Below, one piece after another: positions 1,121 to 19,866 of a stretch of DNA of 64,000 bases (positions within the stretch are counted from its first letter, which is position 1; every line of letters begins with the position of its first letter). A program made the translations under genes and the position numbers. Source of the DNA: Bacteroidota bacterium (GTDB taxonomy: Bacteria; Bacteroidota; Bacteroidia; AKYH767-A; 2013-40CM-41-45); contig SHNE01000044.1 in assembly GCA_004295015.1 (NCBI GenBank), forward strand, positions 3,998 through 67,997. The letters are read 5' to 3'. Below the pieces are notes generated by a model that saw nothing but the letters and a program-made list of their open reading frames with translations, was not told the DNA's origin and ran no database searches.

Positions 1121-1615
1121 ATGATAAAAATGAAGAAAATAGTCGGAATTCTGATGTTATGCATGATTTTTTCTTGCATTTCGATCAATGTGGAGGCTCA
1201 GGAAAGAGCTAATCCCGGGCGGAGTGTGGCCTTGATTTTAACGGTGAGTGGCGTGGATAAGGTCATGGATAGGGTTGAAATATTTAAACAAGATGTATTT
1301 GATGGGAAGGCAAAAAATATTTATACGATGGGTTCTTTGCATTCGAAGAGCGCATTGCACGTTCAGGTATTGAATCAATCGAATGAGATTATTTTTGAAG
1401 GATACCTGGACAATCCACTTGACTTACAACTGGAAAGTTTTAATCCGGATGGAAGCATTGAACGCTCGAGTATGGTCAAAGAGGAAGGCCACGTAAATTT
1501 GCGTTTTCCATTACCTGAGGGAAATCCGGATTTAGTAATAAAATGTTATCAGTATTTCAGTAGCGAATCGGAAACTCTGGTTTCAACTATTAATTTGTCG
1601 AACTATGAGAACTAG
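1121..1615 (+). CDS. Small secreted hypothetical protein (164 aa). It overlaps the downstream peptidase gene by 11 nt and may be its partner or inhibitor.
   Basis: N-terminal signal peptide (MKKIVGILMLCMIFSCISINVEAQ). The stop lies inside the ATGAGAACTAG overlap with the start of the next ORF, which suggests translational coupling. Confidence 0.6.
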   Translation: MIKMKKIVGILMLCMIFSCISINVEAQERANPGRSVALILTVSGVDKVMDRVEIFKQDVFDGKAKNIYTMGSLHSKSALHVQVLNQSNEIIFEGYLDNPLDLQLESFNPDGSIERSSMVKEEGHVNLRFPLPEGNPDLVIKCYQYFSSESETLVSTINLSNYEN

Positions 1616-4494: not shown

Positions 4495-6105
4495 TTATTT
4501 GCTAAGTTTCACCCAGGAAATATTTTCGTTTACTTTTCCACTTATTAGTTTAACCAGGTAATAGCCGTCCTGTAAATGAGATGCATCTAAAATAGTTCTC
4601 GTGTACTGAACTTGATTGAGCATTAGTTTCCCACTCAAATCATAGATTCTGATTTCTACTTCGACGTCATCTCCACTAATATTAATTTTACCTGATGAAG
4701 GAACAGGATAAATTGAAAAATGGTTTTTAAATAGTTTAGATACGCCTGTAAGCGCAGAGGCTGAAATTTTCCCTATAACAAAATTCATCAGGCTATTTCC
4801 AATATACGCAGTGCTGTCAAACACAGAGTTGTCTCTGAATGCTGCATTGAAGTAGCAATCACCATTCTCAGCAACTTTTAATGCATTAAGCTTGTTATAG
4901 GTTTCGCTTCCAAAAATTTTCCCCCAACGGGTGTTTCCATTTGGATCGAATGAAATAATACTAAGTCTGTTTTCATATAGCTGCCCTAAGCCGGCTGTCA
5001 GTACAACTCCATTTCCCCAATCCAAGATGCCTGCAGAGCGGCCACTCAAATAAATATTACCGGCAAGATCAACGTCTATACAGTCATCTGCTGTAGGCGT
5101 GAATCTTCCTGTGATAGCTGATGTTCCGGCAGGATTGGATTTTCCCCATTGGAATATTCCCAAGCTGTCAATTTTCAGCAGGAAAAATTCCTGACTCCAT
5201 TGCGGACGAGGGAATGTAAGAGTTCCGAAATTTGTACTGTCATATATTACTCCGGCCAAGTAAGCATTCCCGAGCTCATCACTAACTACCTTGTGATTTA
5301 GAAAAGTGATATCGTTTGCGAAATGAGCCCAGCTTGCATTCCTGTTTGCATCATACCGGCCTATGAATTTAGCATAAGCTGGAATGACAGTATAACTTTG
5401 ATTTCCAAAAGTCATGATCCCACCCTCTGTAGCTCCAGCTATAAAAATATTTCCATAGGGATCAAAGCTGAAGCTGGTCAACAGCAGTGCTCCGTCCTGT
5501 ATTAATGAATCGAGATCATCACCATTTGAATCAACCTGATAAAGTGCGGAATTATTAAAATCATTAATAGCGTACCATAGATTTCCTGACAGATCAATTT
5601 GAAGGTCCTCCAGATTTGTCAGCGGATGTGTTAATTCAAGATTACGCTTCCATAGCAATTGTCCGCCGGCATCAATCTTTGCCAGAAATTTGTTTACATT
5701 CAAACCACTTGCTATGTTAAGGAGTTCATGCAAACCATCGAAATTTAAGGTATCCATAAAGCCGCCACAGATGTATACATTATGATTTAAATCGGTGACA
5801 ATCTTTTTGATAAAAACTTTTTTTGACAAAGTGATACTCCATGAAGGAATGCCTGCCGCATCTCGTTTCTCAAGAAAAACTTTACCGAATGCATCCTGAC
5901 TATAATGAATTGCAAAACTGTCAAGCCTGGCATTGACTTCAGCGCCATCAGAAAAAATTGCAATAGGTGAATTCACCATGTCAGGATTTAAACTGTACTG
6001 AGACTGATGATGGCTTATCCATTCGAAATATTGCGCTTTGTTATCAAGTGAAAAAAGCAAGAACATGAGTGAGAAGACAAGTATTTTTCGAAACATGTGA
6101 AGCAA
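4495..6105 (-). CDS. Secreted beta-propeller-like protein with T9SS C-terminal sorting domain
   Basis: Signal peptide (MFRKILVFSLMFLLFSLDNKAQ). Internal repeats fit a propeller. The C-terminal FSIYPVPSSGKINISGDDVEVEIRIYDLSGKL...YYLVKLISGK region is a Por_Secre_tail-like domain. Confidence 0.7.
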   Translation of the reverse strand: MLHMFRKILVFSLMFLLFSLDNKAQYFEWISHHQSQYSLNPDMVNSPIAIFSDGAEVNARLDSFAIHYSQDAFGKVFLEKRDAAGIPSWSITLSKKVFIKKIVTDLNHNVYICGGFMDTLNFDGLHELLNIASGLNVNKFLAKIDAGGQLLWKRNLELTHPLTNLEDLQIDLSGNLWYAINDFNNSALYQVDSNGDDLDSLIQDGALLLTSFSFDPYGNIFIAGATEGGIMTFGNQSYTVIPAYAKFIGRYDANRNASWAHFANDITFLNHKVVSDELGNAYLAGVIYDSTNFGTLTFPRPQWSQEFFLLKIDSLGIFQWGKSNPAGTSAITGRFTPTADDCIDVDLAGNIYLSGRSAGILDWGNGVVLTAGLGQLYENRLSIISFDPNGNTRWGKIFGSETYNKLNALKVAENGDCYFNAAFRDNSVFDSTAYIGNSLMNFVIGKISASALTGVSKLFKNHFSIYPVPSSGKINISGDDVEVEIRIYDLSGKLMLNQVQYTRTILDASHLQDGYYLVKLISGKVNENISWVKLSK

Positions 6106-6253
6106 GTTTAATGAGTCTTAACCAAAGTTAAGATTTCTGCTTTGGTTTATCGAGTATTTTAACGATAAATTAATTATAAATATAATACTGTATTTGAATT
6201 GGGCCTTAATTTGATTTTTTTGAAGAGTTCTTTCTGTTTCGTACATTTAGGCT

Positions 6254-6715
6254 ATGGTAGGCAAGGCCAACATAAAGAATTTATTAAAGGCAGAATGTGT
6301 CCGCATCTTAGAAGAGCGTATCGAACATGCTTCCCTGGCTATGCTTTCTGCTCAGGAAGCTGCAAACAGCGAAGGAAAGAGTTCAGCAGGTGATAAATAT
6401 GAAACTTCTCGTGCAATGGGACAGCAGGACCGCGACATGAATGCACGGCAATTGGAACAAGCTCGTAAAGATTTGGCTTTTATTCAAGCTCTTGATGTAA
6501 GCCATATACCTGATAGTATTAAGGTCGGCTCATTGGTTTATTGCAAAGAAGGAATATTTTTTATTGCTGCCGGTTTAGGAAGCGTGAATATTGGAGGGAA
6601 ACAAATACATATCGTCTCTCCGGCAGCACCTTTGGCAAATTTGTTATTAAACAAGAGAGTTGGACAAAAAATATCTATGAATGAAAGGAGTTTTGAAATT
6701 TTGGAATTAGGATAG
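6254..6715 (+). CDS. GreA/GreB-family (Rnk-like) protein. Bacteroidota homologs are sometimes mis-annotated as 3-oxoacyl-ACP synthase.
   Basis: The C-terminal FKBP-like segment VGSLVYCKEG...GKQIHIVSPAAPLANLLLNKRVGQKI resembles the GreA C-terminal domain (ISxxSPiaraLiGkkvGd). Confidence 0.5.
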   Translation: MVGKANIKNLLKAECVRILEERIEHASLAMLSAQEAANSEGKSSAGDKYETSRAMGQQDRDMNARQLEQARKDLAFIQALDVSHIPDSIKVGSLVYCKEGIFFIAAGLGSVNIGGKQIHIVSPAAPLANLLLNKRVGQKISMNERSFEILELG

Positions 6716-6753
6716 CAGAATACTATTTACTGAATAAAAAAAGACCCTCAAAA

Positions 6754-8448
6754 ATGAACCGACTTAAAATTTGTTCCGCAATTTTAGTTTTTGTACTTGT
6801 ATCAAGTAACAGTTATTCTCAAACACAACATGCCGGTTGTGCACCGAAAGTTGCCGACAGGGAATGGTACAGTAGTGGTAAAAGAGCACCGCTTTTCGAA
6901 GGGCTTGATGGAATAAATTTTCCGATAACGACAAAAAATCCTGAGGTCCAGAAATATTTTAATCAGGGTCTCATGCTTAGCTATGCATTCAATCATGCTG
7001 AGGCAGCACGTTCTTTTTATGAAGCCATCCGTTTAGATTCCTCATGTGCCATGTGTTATTGGGGCTATGCCCTCGTACTTGGTCCAAATTATAACGCAGG
7101 AATGGAAATGGATAATATCCAAAGGGCCTATGAGGCTTCGCAACGTGCTGTTCAACTAAGCGAATCACTAACACAGAAAGAAAAAATGCTCATTATGGCA
7201 TTGAGTATGCGATATGATTCTGTGCAGACTGAAGATCGATCTTGGAATGATGAGTCATATGCTTTCACCATGGGTTCAGTTTATCTCGTTTTCCCGGATG
7301 ACCCTGATGTGGCTGCATTATATGCAGAAGCACTCATGGATCAACATCCCTGGGATTTATGGAATAGAGATGGCAGCGCGAAATCCTGGACGCCTGAAAT
7401 TGTAAATGTGTTGGAGAAAACACTTAAGAAAAATCCTACACATCCCGGGGCAAATCACTTTTATATACACGCAGTAGAAGCTTCTTCAACACCTGAAAGA
7501 GCGATGGCAAGCGCTGATCTGCTTAGAGATCTTGTCCCTGGAGCAGGGCATTTGGTTCATATGCCTTCACACATATATATACGCACCGGTCGATATCATG
7601 AAGGGACACTCGCAAATCAAAAAGCTGTTGAAGTTGATGAGGAGTATATTTCGGCTTGTCATGCTCAGGGCGTTTATCCCTTGGCATATTTCCCGCACAA
7701 TTATCATTTTATGGCTGCTACTGCTGCCTTAGAAGGTGATAAAACAACAGCAATTATGGCTAGCCGTAAGATGCGTGAGCAATTAAACGCAGAATTATTG
7801 CGTGATCCAGATTGGGGAACCTTGCAGCATTATTATTCCATCATTTACTATGTGATGGTAAAATTTGGAATGTGGGATGAAATACTTATGGAAGCTGTCC
7901 CTGATGCAGAACTCCCATATCCAAGAGCCATTCTTGAATACGCAAAGGGAATGGCCTTTCTTTCAAAGAACAATCTTCCTGAGGCCAAAAAGCATCTTCA
8001 AACGTTGGTGACTCTTTCGAAAGATACTTTAGCTCAGAAAGTAAGTATTTGGGAAATTAACTCTGCAAGTGACCTCATGGCTATCGCCATACATGTTTTA
8101 CATGGGGAGATATTAAACAGAGAAGGAAATGGACAAATGGCAATTGAAGAGTTGAAAAAGGCAATTGCTATAGAAGATCAATTGCAGTATAATGAACCAC
8201 CGGATTGGTTTTTCTCTGTACGTCATAATCTGGGTTCCGTCTTATTGGAGAATAAGATGTATCCTGAAGCTGAGAAAGTTTTGCGTGAAGATCTCGTAAA
8301 GTACCCTTTAAACGGGTGGTCACTTATTGGATTAAATCTTTCGCTTCAGTTCCAGAATAAAATTGAAGAAGCAAAACAGACAGACCTTCAGTTTGAAAAG
8401 GCCTGGAAATATTCTACTGTTGCCATTAAAACTTCAAGAATTCTATAA
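6754..8448 (+). CDS. Secreted hypothetical protein (564 aa), probably alpha-helical and TPR-like
   Basis: Signal peptide (MNRLKICSAILVFVLVSSNSYSQ). I recognise no catalytic motif. Confidence 0.55.
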   Translation: MNRLKICSAILVFVLVSSNSYSQTQHAGCAPKVADREWYSSGKRAPLFEGLDGINFPITTKNPEVQKYFNQGLMLSYAFNHAEAARSFYEAIRLDSSCAMCYWGYALVLGPNYNAGMEMDNIQRAYEASQRAVQLSESLTQKEKMLIMALSMRYDSVQTEDRSWNDESYAFTMGSVYLVFPDDPDVAALYAEALMDQHPWDLWNRDGSAKSWTPEIVNVLEKTLKKNPTHPGANHFYIHAVEASSTPERAMASADLLRDLVPGAGHLVHMPSHIYIRTGRYHEGTLANQKAVEVDEEYISACHAQGVYPLAYFPHNYHFMAATAALEGDKTTAIMASRKMREQLNAELLRDPDWGTLQHYYSIIYYVMVKFGMWDEILMEAVPDAELPYPRAILEYAKGMAFLSKNNLPEAKKHLQTLVTLSKDTLAQKVSIWEINSASDLMAIAIHVLHGEILNREGNGQMAIEELKKAIAIEDQLQYNEPPDWFFSVRHNLGSVLLENKMYPEAEKVLREDLVKYPLNGWSLIGLNLSLQFQNKIEEAKQTDLQFEKAWKYSTVAIKTSRIL

Positions 8449-8513
8449 AATGGAATTTCATGGAATAATAAACTATTTTGTTAAATGTTTGAATAGTCTT
8501 CAGTGCAAAGTTC

Positions 8514-9062
8514 ATGGTACAAGCAGAAATATTTTCTGAACTTCAGGTTAAACATACATCATTTATCGATTATGTGAATTCATTGAATGAAACTTCGTTC
8601 AATTTTTCTCATAATGAAAAATGGACTGCCGGGCAACAGCTTGCACATATTGACCTTTCATTAAAACCCCTTGCAAAAGTTTTATTCTTCCCGAAATTTA
8701 TACTAAAAAGAAAATTTGGTAGAGCTAATCGGGAAAGTAAAAGTTATCAGGCACTGAAGGAAAAATATGTGATGAAGTTACAGGGAGGTGGCACAGCAAA
8801 TACAGCATTCAGACCCGAGGCTATAAAGGTTGATCAGCGCAGGAAGATAATAGAGGATATTGAAAGGTCTTTGGAACGCATTTACAGAAGGGCAGGCAGG
8901 TATTCAGAAGCTGACCTGGATTTTTATATTCTTCCTCATCCTCTGCTTGGAAAACTGACTGTCCGTGAGATGTTATATTTTACAATATATCATGTTCAGC
9001 ATCATGAAGAAATTACAAAAAGAAATTTGACAGAAATTATGAAGTTGAATTCTTCTGTTTAA
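8514..9062 (+). CDS. DinB/YfiT-like four-helix-bundle metal-binding protein (DinB_2-like)
   Basis: Conserved His positions: AHIDLSLKP near the N-terminus and YHVQHHEEI near the C-terminus, as in DinB_2 family proteins. Confidence 0.5.
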   Translation: MVQAEIFSELQVKHTSFIDYVNSLNETSFNFSHNEKWTAGQQLAHIDLSLKPLAKVLFFPKFILKRKFGRANRESKSYQALKEKYVMKLQGGGTANTAFRPEAIKVDQRRKIIEDIERSLERIYRRAGRYSEADLDFYILPHPLLGKLTVREMLYFTIYHVQHHEEITKRNLTEIMKLNSSV

Positions 9063-12581: not shown

Positions 12582-13949
12582 ATGAATGATAATAAACTTT
12601 CATTTTTTGAAAAGGCAAATAACTGGATTCGGCAATCTGTCACGATCCGTTTAATGACAATGGGAATTCTGATCCTTCTCTTATTGATACCCGTATCAAT
12701 GGTAGAAGATCTCATACGGGAAAGAGAATATAGACAAGAAGAAGCAATAAGGGAAGTCAGTTCGAAGTGGGGCGAGAAACAAACCATTACCGGAATGGTG
12801 CTAACGGTTCCTTATAAAAGTTATGAGAAAGTTTTTGAAACCGAGAGTAATGAAAAGTACAAATTAATAGAATCCGTTAAGTTCGCACATTTTTTACCTG
12901 AACTGTTGAACATCGATGGAGAAATTTCTCCTGAGATCAGATATCGGGGTATTTATGAGGTAATTGTATACAATTCAAAAGTTAGGTTGACCGGGAATTT
13001 CCTGATGCCGAATTTTGACGAGTGGAAGATAGCCAAAGAGAATATTATCTGGGATGATGCTTATTTATCATTGGGTCTTTCAGATTTGAGAAGTATTCAG
13101 GAAAACATTTCGGTGGAATGGAATAACAAACAATATTTTTTCAATCCGGGTGTAGAATCTAGCGATGTAATTCAAACCGGAATAAGTACACGGCTTTCAT
13201 TGAACCATACCGACAGTCTGGGAGCAAATTTCATTTTTTCTCTCAATCTGAATTTTAATGGCAGCTCGGGATTAAGTTTTATTCCTCTTGGGAAAGTCAG
13301 CAAGGTGAATATTAAATCAAAATGGCAGAACCCGAGTTTTGACGGAGCTTTTCTACCTGATAATAGAGAGATTAACGCTGATGGTTTTACAGCCAACTGG
13401 GAAGTATTGCATTTGAACCGTTCGTACCCTCAAAGTTTCAGAGGAAGTGTTGAAGGAATAGAGGAATCATCTTTTGGAGTTAATCTGATTGTACCGGTTG
13501 ATGAATACCAAAAAAGTATGCGATCGGCCAAGTATGCAGTAATGTTCATTGCCTTAACTTTTTTAATTTTCTTTTTCGTTCAAATTCTGAATGAAGTAAG
13601 AATTCATCCTATTCAATACATCATAGTTGGTTTGGCTCTATGTGTTTTTTATACATTGCTAATAGCTTTGTCGGAGCACATTGCTTTTAACTATAGTTAT
13701 CTAATAGCAAGTGTTTCCATTATCGCATTGATTACTCTTTATGCAAAAAGTATTTTCAAAAGTTCAATGCTTACAGGTGTGATGTGTTTGATTCTTAGTA
13801 TACTTTATCTCTTTATATTTTCCATTCTACAAATGGAAGATTATGCTTTACTTATGGGAAGTGTGGGTCTTTTTATTCTTCTGGCAATTGTGATGTATTT
13901 GTCAAGAAAAATAGATTGGTATGCGATAAAAACAAAAGGAGGAGAATAA
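12582..13949 (+). CDS. creD: Cell-envelope integrity inner-membrane protein CreD
   Basis: N-terminal helix, then LIREREYRQEEAIREVSSKWGEKQTITGMVLTVPY and a GIYEV motif, a C-terminal cluster of five or six transmembrane helices, and 455 aa. This matches CreD-family architecture. Confidence 0.7.
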   Translation: MNDNKLSFFEKANNWIRQSVTIRLMTMGILILLLLIPVSMVEDLIREREYRQEEAIREVSSKWGEKQTITGMVLTVPYKSYEKVFETESNEKYKLIESVKFAHFLPELLNIDGEISPEIRYRGIYEVIVYNSKVRLTGNFLMPNFDEWKIAKENIIWDDAYLSLGLSDLRSIQENISVEWNNKQYFFNPGVESSDVIQTGISTRLSLNHTDSLGANFIFSLNLNFNGSSGLSFIPLGKVSKVNIKSKWQNPSFDGAFLPDNREINADGFTANWEVLHLNRSYPQSFRGSVEGIEESSFGVNLIVPVDEYQKSMRSAKYAVMFIALTFLIFFFVQILNEVRIHPIQYIIVGLALCVFYTLLIALSEHIAFNYSYLIASVSIIALITLYAKSIFKSSMLTGVMCLILSILYLFIFSILQMEDYALLMGSVGLFILLAIVMYLSRKIDWYAIKTKGGE

Positions 13950-14135: not shown

Positions 14136-14711
14136 ATGACTTCGCACCCGGTACTCGTTAAAAATATGGTTTGTCATCGCTGTGTACTCTCAGTCGAGGA
14201 TATATTAACTAAGGAAGCTATTCCATTTAACGCTGTGCTCATTGGGGAGATTCATTTGGCTAATCCAATAACCGTTGAGGAGAAAGAGAGACTTTCTGCC
14301 AAGTTGAAAGCTGTAGGTTTTGAATTAATTGACACTCATTTAACCGGTTTAATTGAAAAGATCAAATTGCTCGTCACACGGAAGGCTCGTAACGAGGTTG
14401 ATAAAAAGGAAGCGAAGCTAAATCTATCGGCATATCTTTCAGATAAACTTAATTACGAATATACCCATCTTAGTAGCCTGTTTTCATCTGTCGAAGGACG
14501 AACCATCGAGAAGTATTTTATTGAACAAAGGGTTGAAAAAGCCAAAGAACTCCTTATTTATGGCCAAATGACCTTGTCTGAAATAGCTTTTGAACTTGAC
14601 TATAGTAGTACCGCGCATCTTTCAACCCAATTTAAAAAATTGACCGGTTTGACCCCTTCCTACTTCAAAGAGGTGGGAATTGCCAAGCGAAAAGCGCTTG
14701 ATAAAGTATAA
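14136..14711 (+). CDS. Metal-sensing transcriptional regulator: N-terminal heavy-metal-associated (HMA) domain fused to an AraC-type HTH
   Basis: VLVKNMVCHRCVLSVEDILTKEAIP...VGFELI fits the M-x-C-x-x-C ferredoxin-like HMA fold. The C-terminal LSEIAFELDYSSTAHLSTQFKKLTGLTPSYFKE is an AraC HTH. Confidence 0.65.
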   Translation: MTSHPVLVKNMVCHRCVLSVEDILTKEAIPFNAVLIGEIHLANPITVEEKERLSAKLKAVGFELIDTHLTGLIEKIKLLVTRKARNEVDKKEAKLNLSAYLSDKLNYEYTHLSSLFSSVEGRTIEKYFIEQRVEKAKELLIYGQMTLSEIAFELDYSSTAHLSTQFKKLTGLTPSYFKEVGIAKRKALDKV

Positions 14712-14747
14712 TCCCAATATTATATAATCCTTACCCAAAGTACTATA

Positions 14748-14778
14748 ACACCCAAGCTGGGTGTCGGCTATACTTTTG
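14748..14778 (+). promoter_or_regulatory. Dyad-symmetric site ACACCC-aagct-GGGTGT plus a candidate Bacteroidota -7 box (TACTTTTG). Together they form a putative operator and promoter for the Cys-rich gene.
   Basis: Inverted 6-bp arms at 14748-14764. TACTTTTG at 14771-14778 lies 28 nt upstream of the ATG at 14806. Confidence 0.35.
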
Positions 14779-14805
14779 TCCTATAAATTTTAAATATATA
14801 GAACA

Positions 14806-14979
14806 ATGAAAAACGCCAATGTAAAGAGCCAAAGCGCTCTTGAAAACAGCCAGTCCACTTGTGGCAGAGCAAATTGTACATGCGAGACTTGCATGTGTGA
14901 AACATGTACCTGTGGTACTTCAAAATCCGGAAATTGCACTTGCGGTACTTCGTGCAACTGTTCAGGCTCTTGCAGCTAA
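14806..14979 (+). CDS. Cys-rich 57-aa miniprotein, a metallothionein-like candidate metal-binding peptide
   Basis: ATG at 14806, TAA at 14977. The translation is MKNANVKSQSALENSQSTCGRANCTCETCMCETCTCGTSKSGNCTCGTSCNCSGSCS, with 14 Cys in C-x-C/C-T-C repeats. A strong terminator follows. It is missing from the ORF track because it is under 60 aa. Confidence 0.5.
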   Translation: MKNANVKSQSALENSQSTCGRANCTCETCMCETCTCGTSKSGNCTCGTSCNCSGSCS

Positions 14980-14986
14980 TTATTTG

Positions 14987-15022
14987 AATAGCCGCTTCTT
15001 CGGGAGCGGCTATTATTTAAAC
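14987..15022 (+). terminator. Rho-independent terminator after the Cys-rich ORF
   Basis: Perfect 10-bp inverted repeat AATAGCCGCT-tcttcggg-AGCGGCTATT, then a T-rich ATTTAAA stretch. Confidence 0.55.
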
Positions 15023-15046
15023 CAAAAACAATTAAATTCTAAAGAA

Positions 15047-15838
15047 ATGAAAAATATATTACTAATCCTGGTTATTCTCTTTTTGGCCTCTTGTAAGAAA
15101 GAGGAATTTAATCCCAACCTCACAAAGGAGTTTTCCATTCACGCAAGTTCCAACGGTGCAAACTATGATATTAAAGTTGCACTTCCTGAAAACTATAATC
15201 CTGAAGCAACACAATATTCTACAATATATCTCCTGGATGGAGAAGAGATTTTTTCATTTGTCGCCGAAAAATCAAAAAAAATAAGTTCTGATTTGTCTGT
15301 TTTAAATGCCTTGGTAATAAGTATAAGTTATGGTAACGACAGAGTCAATGATTATACTCCTTCAAAGGCAAGTGAAGGAGATGGAGGAGCTGAAAATTTT
15401 GCGCTCTTTATCAAAAATGACTTGATACCAAGGATAGAGAGTGATTTTGCCGCAGACACTTCCAGAAGAAGTCGTGTTATCCTCGGACATTCCTTCGGTG
15501 GCTTGTTTGCAGCTTATGCATTTACAAATCATAATAGCGATTTCGGGAATTACATTATGCTTAGTCCTTCTATTTGGTACGACAATGAGATCATGCTAAG
15601 ACTTGAGCAGGAGAACCGCAATACGAATAAGTACAATGATCAATTGGTTTTCATGGGTATCGGTTAAATTGATAACAATGGAAGAATGCTCGCGCCCTAT
15701 CAGGCTTTTTATAATCGATTAAAAGACAATTATCCTTCAATTAAAATTACGAGTCATATTGAACCACACCTTGATCACATGGGGTCTGAAAAGCCTAACA
15801 TTATAGAAGGTCTTAATTTTTATTTTAAAAACCGTTAA
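15047..15838 (+). pseudogene. Lipoprotein esterase (alpha/beta hydrolase, putative esterase/Fes-IroE-like family) interrupted by an in-frame TAA at 15665-15667
   Basis: Lipoprotein signal (MKNILLILVILFLASC). It has the GHSFGG nucleophile elbow. The reading frame continues in the same frame after the TAA (IDNNGRMLAPYQAFYNRLKDNYP...HLDHMGSEKPNIIEGLNFYFKNR), which is the expected C-terminal part of this esterase family including the catalytic His region. Confidence 0.55.
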
Positions 15839-15881
15839 TCAAATTCAATTTATCAAAATCATATAAAAGTAACACACACAC

Positions 15882-16496
15882 ATGAAAATCTTCAAAATAT
15901 TACCCGTCCTAATAATCCTGTTGAATCTTTCAACATCAGCAAAGAAAAATGACTCTATCGGATTGGCACAGCAAAATTACCCGATATCAATTATAAGTAT
16001 TGAGCCTTCTATTGGACTAAAGCCATCTCCTATGTCTGATCTGATAATTAGCAATCTTGTTCAGTGGAATTTAATGAAAAGACTAAGTATTGTGTCTCAT
16101 ACTTCCTACTCTTTCAACAATGTATTTCTCAGAGAATTTAATTATGTGGAAACAGATTATAACTATTCCCTGGGACAGAAATTTGGAATCGGAACTTCTC
16201 TGTATTCAAATCGCTCTTCGCACACATTTTCTTTGATGGCCGGAATAAAATACGACTCCTATAAAGAGACTTTGGCTAACCCTGAATTTGAAAAGGTCTC
16301 GGCATCTGCAAATTCTCTAAGTCCTGACTTTGGATTGTTATATAATTTGAAAAAGGGAAAGAAAAAATACTATTTTAGCTTCAGCATGTATCTTCCTCTT
16401 TACCCATATCCGATGATAAGTTTAGATACTTATAGTCTGAGCGGAAACCTGGCGAATATCTCTATGGAATTCGGAGTAGGAATCCGATTAAAATAA
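15882..16496 (+). CDS. Small secreted hypothetical protein (204 aa), possibly an outer-membrane beta-barrel
   Basis: Signal peptide (MKIFKILPVLIILLNLSTSA). Alternating hydrophobic pattern and a Y/S/G-rich composition. Confidence 0.45.
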   Translation: MKIFKILPVLIILLNLSTSAKKNDSIGLAQQNYPISIISIEPSIGLKPSPMSDLIISNLVQWNLMKRLSIVSHTSYSFNNVFLREFNYVETDYNYSLGQKFGIGTSLYSNRSSHTFSLMAGIKYDSYKETLANPEFEKVSASANSLSPDFGLLYNLKKGKKKYYFSFSMYLPLYPYPMISLDTYSLSGNLANISMEFGVGIRLK

Positions 16497-16542
16497 TTAA
16501 ATAAAGGCAACCTGATAAGATTAATCATTTCATCTCAGCATT

Positions 16543-17871
16543 ATGAAAAATCAAAACAAAGTAGTAGAGTATAATTTTGAGGCAAGTGAATTCAACTGGG
16601 ATATAGCTCCCGGGAAAACGATCAAAGCATGGGGTTTCAACAAGCAGCTCCCCGGTCCGGTATTAAGAGCAAACGTTGGCGATACACTTGTTGTTCGGCT
16701 GACCAATAATCTTACACAACCAACTTTGATGCATTGGCATGGATTGAGGATACCTGCCTTCATGGACGGGACGGCTGAAGTTCAGAGACCAATCGAACCC
16801 GGTGAAGTTTTTGAATACCGCTTTGTATTACCTGATGCAGGAACATTTTGGTACCATTCGCATGTCAATGAAACGGTACAAATGGAAAGAGGATTGTATG
16901 GTGCAATCATAGTGGAGGATCCCACTGACCCGATTATGGATGATGAAAAAATATTCATGATTGATGATATGAAATTGGACGAAGCAAATGAATTCACAAC
17001 TCCAGCCTGGTCATTACCCCGCCTTGTTGAAAGACACGATGGACGGGAAGGAAAGACGCTGTTGATCAATGGAAAAGAAACTCCACAAATTCATATTTAT
17101 GCCGGGCAAACTGAAAGATGGAGGTTTGTCAATTCTTCCAGTGCAAGATATTTTGTCTTGTATTTAAATGGGAAAGAATTTAAAATTATAGGAACCGACG
17201 GCGGGCTTCTTGAGCATCCACGAACAGTTACTCAGGTTTTAATAACTCCCGGCGAAAGAATCGATATTGCAGCCGGACCTTTTGAAGAGGGTGAAACATT
17301 TTCCATGGAATCTTTACGATATAACAGAAGTACTTTTTTCAGACCGAAGCGTCAAACGTTTGCAAGCATTGTCGTTGGAAGTCCTAAAGCGTCTGTGGCA
17401 TTTGTCCCCGATACATTGAGAAAGATAGAACCTTTGGCAGATCAACATGCACCTGTAAACCGAAAAATAAAATTATCTGTCGGACCGAGTTTAAAGAACG
17501 GATTAAATTTTCTGGTGAATGGCGATATGCATGTTCAGGATAAACCGGTGAAGGTCGGGGAACTTCAGGTTTGGGAAGTGTCTAACCCCAGTCTGATGGA
17601 TCATCCTTTTCACTTGCACGGTTATTTCTTCCAGGTTATCGAAGAGAACGGAAAAGTACCCGAATACCTTGCATGGAAGGACACCGTTAATTTACTTCCA
17701 AGGTCAAAAGTAAAAATTGCATGGATGCCTGATAATCGTCCCGGTACATGGATGTATCATTGCCATATTATCGAACACCATGCTGCAGGTATGATGGCTA
17801 GTTTTGAAGTAGTTGATGGGACGAAGCCGGTTGGGGAGGAGACACATGCAAGAACGCATCATCATCATTAA
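16543..17871 (+). CDS. Multicopper oxidase (laccase/CueO-like) without a signal peptide and with a C-terminal His-rich tail
   Basis: All four copper-ligand motifs are present: HWHG, WYHSH, HPFHLHG and HCHIIEHHAAGMM. The protein ends in HARTHHHH. An upstream in-frame stop at 16522 rules out a longer N-terminus. Confidence 0.85.
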   Translation: MKNQNKVVEYNFEASEFNWDIAPGKTIKAWGFNKQLPGPVLRANVGDTLVVRLTNNLTQPTLMHWHGLRIPAFMDGTAEVQRPIEPGEVFEYRFVLPDAGTFWYHSHVNETVQMERGLYGAIIVEDPTDPIMDDEKIFMIDDMKLDEANEFTTPAWSLPRLVERHDGREGKTLLINGKETPQIHIYAGQTERWRFVNSSSARYFVLYLNGKEFKIIGTDGGLLEHPRTVTQVLITPGERIDIAAGPFEEGETFSMESLRYNRSTFFRPKRQTFASIVVGSPKASVAFVPDTLRKIEPLADQHAPVNRKIKLSVGPSLKNGLNFLVNGDMHVQDKPVKVGELQVWEVSNPSLMDHPFHLHGYFFQVIEENGKVPEYLAWKDTVNLLPRSKVKIAWMPDNRPGTWMYHCHIIEHHAAGMMASFEVVDGTKPVGEETHARTHHHH

Positions 17872-18101: not shown

Positions 18102-19178
18102 TTGAAAATTATGAAAAAGTCGATCGTTGTTTTATTGCATGTTGGATTTTGGTTATGTTACCTGCTGTTGGCAATTATCATGGTTGCAGTATATTATAGA
18201 AGCAGTGGGCATGGTTTGGATCAGACCGCAAGGATAGAAAACGCATTTAAATCAATATTAATCTTTGCCGTCTTTCCTTCAATCATAACCTTTTATCTCT
18301 CCTATTTTCTTGTATTCCCTAAACATCTCCAGCAAAAGAAAATATTCAGGTCAATTTTATTGGGCTTACTCATCTCAGTAGGTGCTGCCATATTGGGTTA
18401 TGTTGCCATACGGTATTTTATTGAAACCGGTCGTTTGATTGATATGGACAATGGGGGAAAAAACGGAAGGTCTACTGCCATAGGAGTCATCTTCGTGATG
18501 ACCATCATCGCTTCAATTTCCGGTATGGTTGCCCTGGTTATGAAAGGCTTTATAACTTGGTATGAAGAAATGAAATTGAAAGAAGAATTAAAACAAAAGA
18601 ATCATGAAACAGAAATGGCTTTACTTAAAGCCCAGCTCGACCCACACTTTTTGTTTAATACACTGAATAATATTGATGTTTTATTGATAAAAGATGCTAC
18701 GAAAGCCTCAGATTATTTAAATATGCTTAGTGATATTTTGCGTTTTATGCTGTACGAAACTAAAACAGACACCATATTGCTTGAAAAGGAAATTGAATAT
18801 ATCCATAAGTATATTGAATTGCAAAAAATAAGAACCTCTAATTTAAACTATGTTAATTTTGAGGTAACCGGAAACCCCGGTAATAAAATGATAGCTCCAA
18901 TGGTTTATATACCATTTATTGAAAATGCTTTCAAGCATTCCACCAATAAGAAAATAGACAATGCTATTAATGTCAAGGTATTTATTAATAAAGACAACAT
19001 TCTGTTTATTTGTGAAAACAAATTCGATTCAAGTAGAATGATTAAACAAGATAGTGGGGGATTGGGAAATGAACTTATTAAAAAACGACTAAATCTACTT
19101 TACCCCGATATGCACAACTTAGAAATAGTTAATCAAAGTGATAATTATAGTGTACTTTTAACTATACAATATGGATAA
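18102..19178 (+). CDS. LytS/YehU-type sensor histidine kinase
   Basis: N-terminal transmembrane helices. LKAQLDPHFLFNTLNNI is the His_kinase (PF06580-type) H-box. A C-terminal HATPase region follows. The gene overlaps the downstream response-regulator gene by 8 nt. Confidence 0.8.
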   Translation: MKIMKKSIVVLLHVGFWLCYLLLAIIMVAVYYRSSGHGLDQTARIENAFKSILIFAVFPSIITFYLSYFLVFPKHLQQKKIFRSILLGLLISVGAAILGYVAIRYFIETGRLIDMDNGGKNGRSTAIGVIFVMTIIASISGMVALVMKGFITWYEEMKLKEELKQKNHETEMALLKAQLDPHFLFNTLNNIDVLLIKDATKASDYLNMLSDILRFMLYETKTDTILLEKEIEYIHKYIELQKIRTSNLNYVNFEVTGNPGNKMIAPMVYIPFIENAFKHSTNKKIDNAINVKVFINKDNILFICENKFDSSRMIKQDSGGLGNELIKKRLNLLYPDMHNLEIVNQSDNYSVLLTIQYG

Positions 19179-19866
19179 GTATTCCTGTATAATCATTGAA
19201 GACGAACCCTTGGCTCTGCACAGAACCAAGGGATTTGTCGATAAAATACCTTTCCTGAATTTATCCGCAACTTTTGATAATGCGCTAAGTGGTCTCACTT
19301 ATTTAAAATCAAATAAAGTCGATTTGCTTTTTCTGGATATTAATATGGATGAATTGTCCGGCATTGAATTACTGGAAAACTCTAAAATTGACAGTCAGGT
19401 TATTATTACGACGGCATATCAGGAATATGCTCTAAAGGGTTATGAATTAAATGTAACCGATTACCTCCTGAAACCATTTAATTTTGACCGCTTTTTAAAA
19501 GCAGTAAATAAAGCTCAGGAAAATCTTCAGAAGTCTCAATCTGTTAATCCGGCCAATTTTATTTTCGTCAAAACAGAAAATCGACTGGAAAAGATTGAAA
19601 TTAATGACATACTATTTATAGAAGGAATGCGGGATTACCGTAGAATTCATACTGTGAGTAAACGGATTATGACTCTACAAAATTTTTCAGAGCTGGAACA
19701 GGTTTTGCCGGCTCATTTGGTATGTAGAGTCCACAAATCCTATATGGTTGGTATCAATAAAATTGAATCGATTGAGCGAAGCAGAATAAAAATCGCCGAT
19801 CAGTTGATTCCAATTTCGGATACTTACAAGGAGCTTTTTTTTCAGCTAATTAACAACCGTCTCTAA
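19171..19866 (+). CDS. LytTR-family response regulator
   Basis: Receiver domain (IIEDEPLA...LFLDINMDELSGIEL) plus a C-terminal LytTR DNA-binding domain. Confidence 0.85.
   Translation: MDKYSCIIIEDEPLALHRTKGFVDKIPFLNLSATFDNALSGLTYLKSNKVDLLFLDINMDELSGIELLENSKIDSQVIITTAYQEYALKGYELNVTDYLLKPFNFDRFLKAVNKAQENLQKSQSVNPANFIFVKTENRLEKIEINDILFIEGMRDYRRIHTVSKRIMTLQNFSELEQVLPAHLVCRVHKSYMVGINKIESIERSRIKIADQLIPISDTYKELFFQLINNRL

Follow-up and report, generated by a model that had tools for sequence, protein, structure and literature searches.

How a member of the Bacteroidota might sense copper in its cytoplasm is the question raised by a cluster of five genes in a 64,000-nucleotide stretch of contig SHNE01000044.1 from a Bacteroidota bacterium (hereafter the window). 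Cytoplasmic copper sensing is an acknowledged gap in this phylum. In a 2024 genome study of the flavobacterium Bizionia, a copper site was found in none of the MerR or CopY proteins (PMC11213822). For Bacteroidota, a 2023 survey of marine bacteria reported two-component and extracytoplasmic function (ECF) homologues only (PMC10141476), and in these two studies no functional sensor of the CueR, CsoR or CopY type was found in Bacteroidota. The available part of a 2024 Chem Rev review of metallosensors (PMC11672702) covers the ArsR, MerR, CopY, CsoR, Fur, DtxR, NikR, Rrf2, TetR, MarR, LysR and GntR families, names three Cu(I) sensors in control of CopA (CsoR, CueR and CopY), and never mentions AraC. 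The five co-oriented genes, which we found in the open reading frame (ORF) listing and in the sequence just where the initial annotation had placed them, encode an AraC-type regulator, a Cys-rich miniprotein, a lipoprotein esterase, a 204-aa protein and a multicopper oxidase (MCO). We consider it fairly probable that the cluster forms a regulon for metal stress, with copper as the likeliest metal, and that it is controlled by a one-component activator of an undescribed type in which an AraC/XylS domain is joined to a CopZ-like heavy-metal-associated (HMA) domain. Metal sensing and the biochemical roles of the products are what we infer from the analyses described below, metal responsiveness being read from gene context.

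The regulator is composed of an HMA-like domain (residues 1-66, nt 14136-14333), a linker helix (residues 68-84) and an AraC/XylS DNA-binding domain with two helix-turn-helix (HTH) motifs (residues ~95-190), and it contains neither an AraC-type ligand-binding cupin nor a dimerisation domain. The C-terminal domain was recognised by Pfam as HTH_18 (PF12833, 1.1e-18) and HTH_AraC (PF00165, 1.4e-8), and Foldseek matched it to AraT, YesN, AraC, MarA, SoxS, Rob and Rns; searches of Pfam and NCBIfam with the regulator gave generic AraC matches only. The proposal of an HMA domain at the N-terminus had been based on the sequence NMVCHRCV, which occupies residues 10-17 and contains the Cys pair C13/C16. 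The Pfam check suggested along with that proposal came out negative, with no PF00403 match to residues 1-80 even at E <= 10, and precomputed PF00403 annotation was present in 0 of the 120 best homologues of the regulator (of 6,698). The proposal itself was nevertheless borne out by structure prediction and by profile comparison. In the AlphaFold model of the regulator (predicted local distance difference test score, pLDDT, of 87) residues 4-65 adopt a beta-alpha-beta-beta-alpha-beta arrangement with pLDDT 75-93 (strands 4-9, 31-35, 38-41 and 63-65; helices 14-26 and 47-59), and the CxxC motif lies at the beta1/alpha1 junction. When the model was compared with the PDB using Foldseek, matches to AraC-type DNA-binding domains filled ranks 1-42 and were followed by HMA folds with probabilities of 0.97-0.99. 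The best non-AraC match was CopZ (6ff2, probability 0.99, target template modelling score 0.68), followed by the Bacillus anthracis copper-binding protein 2l3m, B. subtilis CopZ (2qif) and domains 5-6 of the Wilson ATPase (2ew9, WLN5-6). We also aligned a profile of regulator residues 1-70 with a profile of 20 HMA domains taken from ATPases that adjoin members of the regulator family. The hhalign comparison, which covered 61 columns, gave 92.2% probability (P 5.8e-7) and placed the Cys pairs in register; the C-terminal strand was similar too (GFELID in the regulator, GYDLLIE in the ATPase domains). Since the predicted fold and the profile-profile comparison both place it there, we conclude that the modelled N-terminal domain is a divergent HMA domain, with CopZ as the closest fold, despite the failure of the Pfam model to detect it.

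The regulator belongs to a large family. The database contained 6,698 homologues, the best 120 of them at 70-100% identity, and in their alignment M11, C13, R15 and C16 are invariant. The motif K-N-M-V-C-x-R-C was found in all 80 loci that we fetched (numbered with the prefix L), which span Chitinophagales, Saprospiraceae, Cytophagales, Sphingobacteriales, Flavobacteriales and Bacteroidales. In L001 (10001) and L083 (5360) the gene is called from Met11, giving a protein of 181 aa. Such a start cuts the conserved strand beta1 (LLVKN; window 14136-14165), and the start giving 191 aa is backed by conservation and by the model. We divided the family into two sub-branches, with regulators at least 60% identical to that of the window in one (miniprotein-linked) and regulators 42-55% identical to it in the other (distant).

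In the distant sub-branch an HMA domain is encoded by the first downstream gene at 28 of 43 loci, and at 22 of the 43 the product of this gene is a P-type ATPase. The P1B-1 signature of Cu(I)/Ag(I) transport (CPC, N-x6-YN-x4-P and M-x2-SS) was present in 22/22 of these ATPases, so that the ATPases linked to the regulator family are all of Cu/Ag type and none is of Zn/Cd type. The other first neighbours include HMA+MauE membrane proteins and YceI proteins. Proteins of about 240 aa with HMA and MauE/DoxX-like parts replace CopA after the operator in L038, L044, L047, L055, L066 and L069, where their genes are often followed by one for a protein of ~435 aa. A YceI-like protein follows the regulator in L036, L051, L071 and L074 (Pedobacter, Sphingobacteriaceae), and in Gillisia (L060, 6664-6984) a DUF326/Csp-like Cys-rich four-helix protein does so. 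Because YceI-like or DUF326 proteins follow the regulator in some loci, the targets of the family would extend beyond the ATPase and the miniprotein. Within the 64 kb of the window itself neither a second regulator paralogue nor a copA gene was found. In the miniprotein-linked sub-branch, nearly every locus has a co-oriented Cys-rich ORF of 37-60 aa that lies ~100 nt downstream of the regulator.

The intergenic regions of the relatives contain a conserved operator. The pattern CCCAAAnnnnTRTAA occurs twice with a period of 21 nt, as a direct repeat of two 16-nt boxes which in the window are box 1, CCCAATATTATATAA (14713-14727), and box 2, CCCAAAGTACTATAAC (14734-14749). The repeat begins 2 nt past the stop codon of the regulator gene, and its consensus among the relatives is CCCAAAaTTnTATAA-n6-CCCAAAGTAnTRTAAC. 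A related pair, ..AAAtnnTRTAA twice, is present in the distant branch, and the simple form of the pattern was detected in at least 52 of the 80 loci across the phylum. Without mismatch the box pattern matches the window only twice, both times at the operator. A position weight matrix (PWM) built from 19 relatives gave a score of 46.9 at the operator, and no other site in the window reached 12. Scanning for sigma-70 promoters and terminators was uninformative for Bacteroidota and missed the real terminator; scans with TAnnTTTG and with the PWM were used instead. The initial annotation had named a candidate TAnnTTTG -7 box in front of the miniprotein. This box, TACTTTTG, precedes the ATG by 27 nt, and between 13900 and 18100 no other intergenic TAnnTTTG is present. 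The candidate gained weight from its position, as 29 of 30 operator sites have a spacing of 27 nt between the TRTAA of box 2 and the -7 element. Each box contains two sub-elements ~10 bp apart, a layout that fits the binding of one two-HTH AraC domain per box, and the conservation of the operator together with the fixed spacing fits AraC/XylS-type recognition by an activator of the tandem-site kind. With two boxes that end next to where the -33 position is expected, the layout is reminiscent of class II activation and of the I1-I2 geometry of AraC.

A different element, a GC-rich dyad, had at first been taken for the operator. This dyad has two bases in common with box 2, the last two of the box, and otherwise fills the spacer behind it, which is variable in sequence; the conserved element is the tandem repeat. 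We rejected the dyad as operator, as its sequence varies between genomes, it is missing from secondary operator sites and its fold is unexceptional (z = -1.2 for the dyad alone). The arms ACACCC/GGGTG are common to the window, L083 and L017, and the loops differ. At operator sites directly behind a regulator gene, unrelated GC-rich palindromes with arms of at least 5 were found at the dyad position in 10 of 22 cases, shuffled sequences giving 8.8% (binomial 7e-6); among 7 secondary operator sites there were none (Fisher 0.03). Because a palindrome is kept after regulator genes while its sequence is not, and none occurs at the secondary sites, the dyad probably acts at the transcript level, as a 3' hairpin (terminator or insulator) of the regulator transcript.

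The product of the ORF behind the operator contains 12 Cys residues (21%), not the 14 counted initially, and all 12 fall within the last 39 residues (31%) in CxC and CxxC repeats. Phe, Tyr, Trp and His are absent, and so is a signal peptide. Among 19 orthologues the Cys columns are invariant, with the core C-x-N-P-x-C-T-C-x-x-C-x-C-G, and for the short forms we obtained ratios of non-synonymous to synonymous change (pN/pS) of 0.1-0.3 with synonymous sites near saturation. Judged by its sequence and that of its relatives, the ORF is a protein-coding gene under purifying selection. It was rightly picked out as a gene in the initial annotation, being conserved next to the regulator in relatives and lying behind the operator. 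A word-index protein search with the miniprotein found no homologue, and an exhaustive phmmer search of 1.84 billion representative proteins found two true relatives and one low-complexity false match (P0242); four sequences of the family were absent from 15 billion proteins in an exact lookup. One reason may lie in gene calling. In L001 the esterase is called as a 332-aa protein from a TTG at 14840 (ORF 14840-15046, in another frame), which masks the miniprotein, and such TTG-start calls may explain the near-absence of the family from protein databases. In L083, PGAP calls both miniprotein and esterase correctly. For the 19 members no Pfam metallothionein match had an E-value below 0.5 (the best was Metallothio_Euk, E 0.57), the best match of the miniprotein among PDB metallothioneins was wheat Ec-1 (E 0.38), and NCBIfam gave no match to the miniprotein. 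The reading that we prefer is that of a putative metallothionein-like cytoplasmic metal buffer, which has the composition of a metallothionein and matches no described metallothionein family. Further copies occur in some genomes. L011 (Ferruginibacter) has two, at 6674-6787 and 8417-8530, each with an operator of its own and distinguished by three synonymous differences only, and in L003 a weaker operator is followed by a second Cys peptide, METTIKKCGCAGAAGTSSACTCGSNCPGAGCTCGCNTCA, which is rich in Gly and Ala (1123-1242, minus strand).

The terminator that the initial annotation had described behind the miniprotein gene is a strong hairpin with a 12-bp stem, a UUCG loop and a T-rich tail. Its folding energy is -19.7 kcal/mol (z -5.6), none of 200 shuffled sequences was as stable, and an equivalent hairpin follows the gene in every miniprotein orthologue. 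Because the sole intergenic -7 box precedes the miniprotein and a strong hairpin follows it, the arrangement points to one inducible promoter with attenuated read-through into the genes beyond.

The last gene of the cluster encodes an MCO with the Pfam domains Cu-oxidase_3, Cu-oxidase and Cu-oxidase_2. All four copper motifs, HWH, HSH, HPFHLH and HCHIIEHHAAGM (of the type HCH-x3-H-x4-M), and the tail HARTHHHH can be read in the translation, as initially noted. The closest PDB entry is McoC (3zx1, 4.8e-59), followed by the Thermus laccase, with CueO at 1e-40. Only 8 residues separate the first start codon from the first conserved strand, and a signal peptide would not fit, because a stop codon directly precedes this ATG. 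In seven orthologues the start is similarly placed, with 8-12 residues ahead of the first strand, and these proteins have short Cys/His-rich tails. The absence of a signal peptide had already been remarked on; because the seven orthologues also lack a leader, the cytoplasmic look of the oxidase appears to be a conserved trait and not an artefact of the start codon.

Conservation of the gene order in related Bacteroidota had been put forward as a check, and the same set of genes recurs beside regulator orthologues in many independent genomes, which makes a chance grouping implausible. Candidatus Opimibacter skivensis (L083) has the same five-gene order. Every context reached from two homologues of the 204-aa protein showed the order regulator, miniprotein (mostly uncalled), esterase, 204-aa protein and MCO, and the order recurs in contigs of Saprospiraceae and Chitinophagales. 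In the 149 neighbouring genes of 23 close loci, MCO (8) and esterase (8) were the commonest further neighbours, together with orthologues of the 204-aa protein. Next came DUF6010 (6), DJ-1/PfpI-AraC fusions (6) and Zn-dehydrogenase-like proteins (5), whose genes may be further members of the regulon. Genes of these three kinds (the Zn-dependent ones being alcohol-dehydrogenase-like) were seen in L085-L087 (7038-7427 / 5748-6137), in L084 (7038-7997) and in loci of the close clade generally. Scanning with the PWM revealed secondary operators before the esterase (L008:692, L015:756, L018:3212 and L020:6577), before the MCO (L020:9016, and in L018 a site at 1514 followed by the MCO) and before extra miniproteins (L011:8320, L019:708 and L020:8208, with a weaker one in L003). 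In L017 and L025 an operator is followed by esterase, 204-aa protein and MCO without a miniprotein. Membership of the esterase, the 204-aa protein and the MCO in the same regulon is supported by this distribution of predicted operators.

The esterase has the Pfam domain Esterase (PF00756, 2.1e-20), the nucleophile motif GHSFGG and a lipoprotein-type signal, MKNILLILVILFLASC (LFLASC). Its closest relatives in the PDB are BES (2qm0, 3e-23) and the IroE-like 3gff, with fungal siderophore esterases (SidJ/EstB-type), Cee and IroE. By sequence similarity it belongs to the IroE/BesA/Cee clade of siderophore esterases, and hydrolysis of siderophore esters is its putative activity; no siderophore uptake or synthesis gene was found among the genes adjacent to it. 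The lipobox Cys is followed by KKEE (C16-KKEEF; window 15095-15112), which resembles the Lys-(Asp/Glu)2 surface-export signal of Bacteroidota lipoproteins, and by this analogy the esterase might be surface-exposed rather than periplasmic. The initial annotation had called the gene broken. The lipoprotein esterase with an in-frame TAA in the window was confirmed, and the stop is not a feature of the lineage. The independent metagenome contig L001 (Logan SRR8466246), reached through the regulator sequence and 99.97% identical to window 4166-24711, has GAA at this place. Six differences separate the two sequences (9374, 11216, 15665, 15670, 15673 and 22402), all of them G->T or C->A in the window, and three lie within 9 nt (15665, 15670 and 15673). 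The resulting peptides are GIGEMENNGRM in L001 and GIG*IDNNGRM in the window; six esterase orthologues share the L001-type consensus G(I/L)GE(M/L/N)E, and the conserved C-terminal third of the protein lies past the stop. One-sided G->T/C->A spectra are typical of oxidative damage or base-calling artefacts. Because the mutation spectrum is one-sided, the stop, derived and recent at best as these comparisons suggest, is probably a sequencing or assembly artefact, and other apparent stops or odd residues in the window may share this origin. A genuine pseudogene was rejected, being contradicted by the near-identical contig and the family consensus. In some metagenome-assembled genomes (MAGs) the esterase or the MCO is split into frames (L084 4159-4958 and 5651-6979; L008 840-1596; L017 6852-7599); these splits are probably assembly frameshifts that could be mistaken for pseudogenes.

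The gene for the 204-aa protein always adjoins that for the esterase. An N-terminal signal peptide agrees with the earlier description of the product as secreted, and neither Pfam nor NCBIfam gave a match for it. An assignment as PcoB analogue was considered and rejected, as the similarity is confined to a generic 8-stranded barrel fold with nothing specific to PcoB. The features of the locus are listed in Table 1.

Table 1. Genes and predicted control elements of the cluster (window coordinates)
Feature	Position	Strand	Size and basis
AraC-type regulator gene	14136-14711	+	191 aa; ORF listing and Pfam
Tandem direct-repeat operator (predicted)	14713-14749	+	Conservation across loci and PWM
GC-rich dyad ACACCCaagctGGGTGT (ACACCC-aagct-GGGTGT)	14748-14764	+	Palindrome counts across operator sites
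-7 promoter box TACTTTTG (TAnnTTTG)	14771-14778	+	Fixed spacing to box 2
Cys-rich miniprotein ORF	14806-14979	+	57 aa; orthologues and pN/pS
Intrinsic-terminator-like hairpin	14987-15020	+	Fold energy against shuffles
Lipoprotein esterase gene (PF00756)	15047-15838	+	263 codons, TAA at 15665-15667; Pfam
204-aa signal-peptide protein, predicted 8-stranded outer-membrane beta-barrel	15882-16496	+	
Three-domain MCO gene	16543-17871	+	442 aa; Pfam and PDB similarity

The cluster is flanked by creD (12582-13949) and, directly downstream of the MCO, by genes for a LytS-like histidine kinase and a LytTR response regulator (18102-19866), as identified with Pfam. A LytTR regulator is located near the cluster in L083 as well (383-1078); this may be a coincidence, such pairs being very common in Bacteroidota. 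The GC content of the cluster (34-42%) is the same as that of the flanks. We therefore rejected a horizontally acquired island, and the word island, which had been used for the cluster initially, does not apply in the sense of horizontal transfer, the composition being no different from that of the surroundings.

The following sequence of events would account for this arrangement. The C13-x-x-C16 pair would sense cytoplasmic Cu(I), and one regulator monomer would bind each box in the manner of a MarA-like two-HTH domain. Bridging or loading of the HMA domains by Cu(I) would then stabilise tandem occupancy beside -33, from where RNA polymerase could be recruited in a class II-like fashion. The induced promoter (~14771-14785) would give rise to abundant miniprotein mRNA ending at the strong hairpin, and read-through would supply the esterase, the barrel and the oxidase, which have no promoter box of their own in the window, at lower levels. 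In the cytoplasm the miniprotein would buffer Cu(I) as thiolate clusters, and the leaderless oxidase with its Cys/His tail might oxidise Cu(I) or catechols. The exported esterase and the outer-membrane barrel might handle catecholate or metallophore esters that aggravate copper toxicity, and the GC-rich dyad would end or insulate the regulator transcript. The central proposal of the initial annotation, in which a metallothionein-like peptide and an MCO are jointly under an AraC regulator of HMA-like type, holds up and agrees with the gene context, the operator and the predicted fold.

Several points weigh against a copper regulon of this kind. The linkage to CopA belongs to a paralogous sub-branch with 42-55% identity, and the effector metal of the miniprotein branch could differ. 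The Pfam model does not recognise the HMA domain of the regulator, and the Foldseek E-values of the HMA matches are weak (0.14-0.24, with a two-domain model as the query). In the window only the miniprotein has an operator, a strong terminator separates it from the esterase, and co-transcription of the esterase, the 204-aa protein and the MCO would have to come from read-through. The compartment in which the esterase and the barrel act is not that of the miniprotein and the oxidase, and we know of no established role for a cytoplasmic copper oxidase. Metal binding, the identity of the inducing metal and activation as opposed to repression are all points that we infer. No description of an HMA-AraC protein or of an AraC-type sensor of copper or free metal was found in the literature searched, the coverage of which excludes most subscription journals.

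Four other explanations were weighed against the copper-responsive activator. With the same architecture, the miniprotein branch could sense Zn(II), Cd(II), Hg(II) or Ag(I), the miniprotein being a Zn/Cd metallothionein. The HMA CxxC motifs of ZntA, CadA and MerP bind divalent soft metals, peptides with Cys only, in CxC and CxxC arrangement, bind Zn and Cd besides Cu, and genes for Zn-dependent dehydrogenases recur as neighbours; the sub-branches, only 42-55% identical, occur in the same genera, with Ferruginibacter MAGs in both. However, KNMVCxRC is identical in both sub-branches, the MCO is in the regulon at >= 8 of ~23 close loci, and the absence of Zn/Cd types from the family-linked ATPases speaks for copper, so that we regard another metal as unlikely. 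The CxxC could also form a disulfide redox switch through which the regulator would sense oxidants or reactive chlorine, the copper genes being part of an oxidative-stress response. RclR, an AraC-family Cys-based sensor of HOCl, is reported to have a Cu(II) reductase in its regulon (PMC7527725), and DJ-1/PfpI and DinB-type genes lie near some relatives of the cluster. Such a switch is improbable in view of the copper-chaperone fold and Cys placement of the sensing domain, and of the main conserved targets, which are Cu(I) ATPases, HMA proteins, a Csp-like protein and Cys-rich peptides rather than antioxidant enzymes.

The remaining two explanations concern the small ORF. It could encode the precursor of a ribosomally synthesised and post-translationally modified peptide (RiPP), a chalkophore-like chelator or a lanthipeptide, with the N-terminal 18 residues as leader. 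A hydrophilic N-terminal segment does precede a Cys/Thr/Ser-rich core, copper-linked RiPPs exist in the methanobactins and bufferins, and the peptide is a conceivable substrate of the MCO. The 25 families listed, of the 146 in the 149 genes of the close neighbourhoods, include no radical-SAM, LanB/C/M, YcaO or MNIO/DUF692 family, however, and the neighbours other than the regulator vary, many loci having a miniprotein and no adjoining enzyme gene. There is no signal peptide or transporter either. We rejected a RiPP precursor, which appears quite improbable, on the ground that no maturase family recurs among the families listed. Finally, the clustering could be incidental, an ordinary AraC regulator of some ligand lying beside unrelated neighbours and a non-coding small ORF. 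The generic Pfam and NCBIfam matches of the regulator and the fruitless word-index search with the small ORF would be expected in that case; the conservation of gene order, operator and ORF across families of Bacteroidota, the purifying selection on the ORF and the occurrence of the operator only once in 64 kb would not, and we find this explanation scarcely credible. A copper-responsive activator of the AraC/XylS plus HMA type remains the reading that we favour.

In a bolder form of this reading, which we put forward tentatively and on which we would not rely, the regulator could be the 'missing' cytoplasmic copper sensor of Bacteroidota and a thirteenth structural class of bacterial metalloregulator, with a CopZ-like HMA domain coupled to an AraC activator domain that works through the tandem repeats. 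In one large clade it would drive a wholly cytoplasmic pair for copper handling, made up of a new, hardly ever annotated metallothionein family and a leaderless MCO. If true, the oxidase would join a very short list of candidate copper enzymes active in the bacterial cytoplasm, and its conserved lack of a leader calls into question the rule that bacterial copper enzymes are extracytoplasmic. The regulator offers a concrete candidate sensor in thousands of genomes, including those of gut Bacteroides, Prevotella and Dysgonomonas, with a defined operator and with predicted regulons that consist either of copA or of miniprotein, oxidase, esterase and barrel. That a miniprotein family is missed by gene callers matters for annotation and for surveys of metal resistance in soil and wastewater metagenomes. 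The sensor and its operator could also become a copper-inducible expression switch for Bacteroidota.

As the initial annotation had pointed out, the architecture is neither that of CueR nor that of CopRS, an AraC DNA-binding domain being combined with an HMA-like domain. In Mycobacterium tuberculosis, the RicR regulon of a CsoR-family Cu(I) sensor comprises the metallothionein gene mymT, the MCO gene mmcO, the lipoprotein gene lpqS and socAB. MymT and RicR are both mentioned in the available part of the 2024 review (PMC11672702). By analogy, this regulon would be the closest functional system to the cluster, followed by CueR-CopA-CueO and by the cyanobacterial BxmR system (ATPase and metallothionein). 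Shared with RicR would be a cytoplasmic copper sensor, a set of targets formed by a Cys-rich peptide, an MCO and a lipoprotein, and the distribution of these targets, dispersed or clustered, each with an operator for the sensor. RicR is a repressor with the CsoR four-helix bundle, whereas the regulator here joins AraC to an HMA-like domain and is probably an activator. The miniprotein lacks similarity to MymT, MmcO is a lipoprotein while the oxidase here has no export signal, and a siderophore-type esterase and an outer-membrane barrel are added here. With CueR-CopA-CueO, CsoR and CopY the proposed system would share a one-component Cu(I) sensor with a low-coordination Cys site, and as targets a P1B-1 ATPase (distant branch) and an MCO (this clade). 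The DNA-binding fold, in contrast, is the two-HTH fold of AraC instead of MerR, CsoR or a winged helix, the sensor is a whole HMA domain, and tandem direct repeats upstream of -33 take the place of a dyad in a long spacer or over the promoter. CueO is Met-rich and exported by the twin-arginine (Tat) pathway, whereas the oxidase here is leaderless with a His/Cys tail.

Similar comparisons can be made for the separate parts of the cluster. With AraC at I1-I2, RhaS and MarA/SoxS/Rob the regulator shares the PF12833 domain, and its two 16-nt boxes with a 21-nt period end beside -33 as in the I1-I2 geometry. Ada, with a Zn-Cys4 domain, and the Cys redox sensor RclR are relatives in which an AraC domain is likewise fused to a sensor, which here is a 66-residue HMA-like domain. 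SmtA/BmtA (PF02069), MymT, Csp1/Csp3 and the BxmR-bmtA-bxa1 system of Oscillatoria brevis resemble the miniprotein in that a metal sensor governs a small Cys-rich protein of the cytoplasm along with metal efflux. Unlike SmtA the miniprotein has no His, and unlike the Csp proteins it is not a four-helix bundle, the DUF326 protein holding the same position in the Gillisia locus. The juxtaposition of an MCO gene with a gene for a small outer-membrane beta-barrel is also found in PcoA/PcoB (CopA/CopB). The esterase, lastly, has the PF00756 fold of IroE, Cee and BesA and shares with IroE and Cee the location of an exported protein or lipoprotein, and it differs from them in its control, with a predicted metal-stress operator in place of Fur-type regulation by iron.

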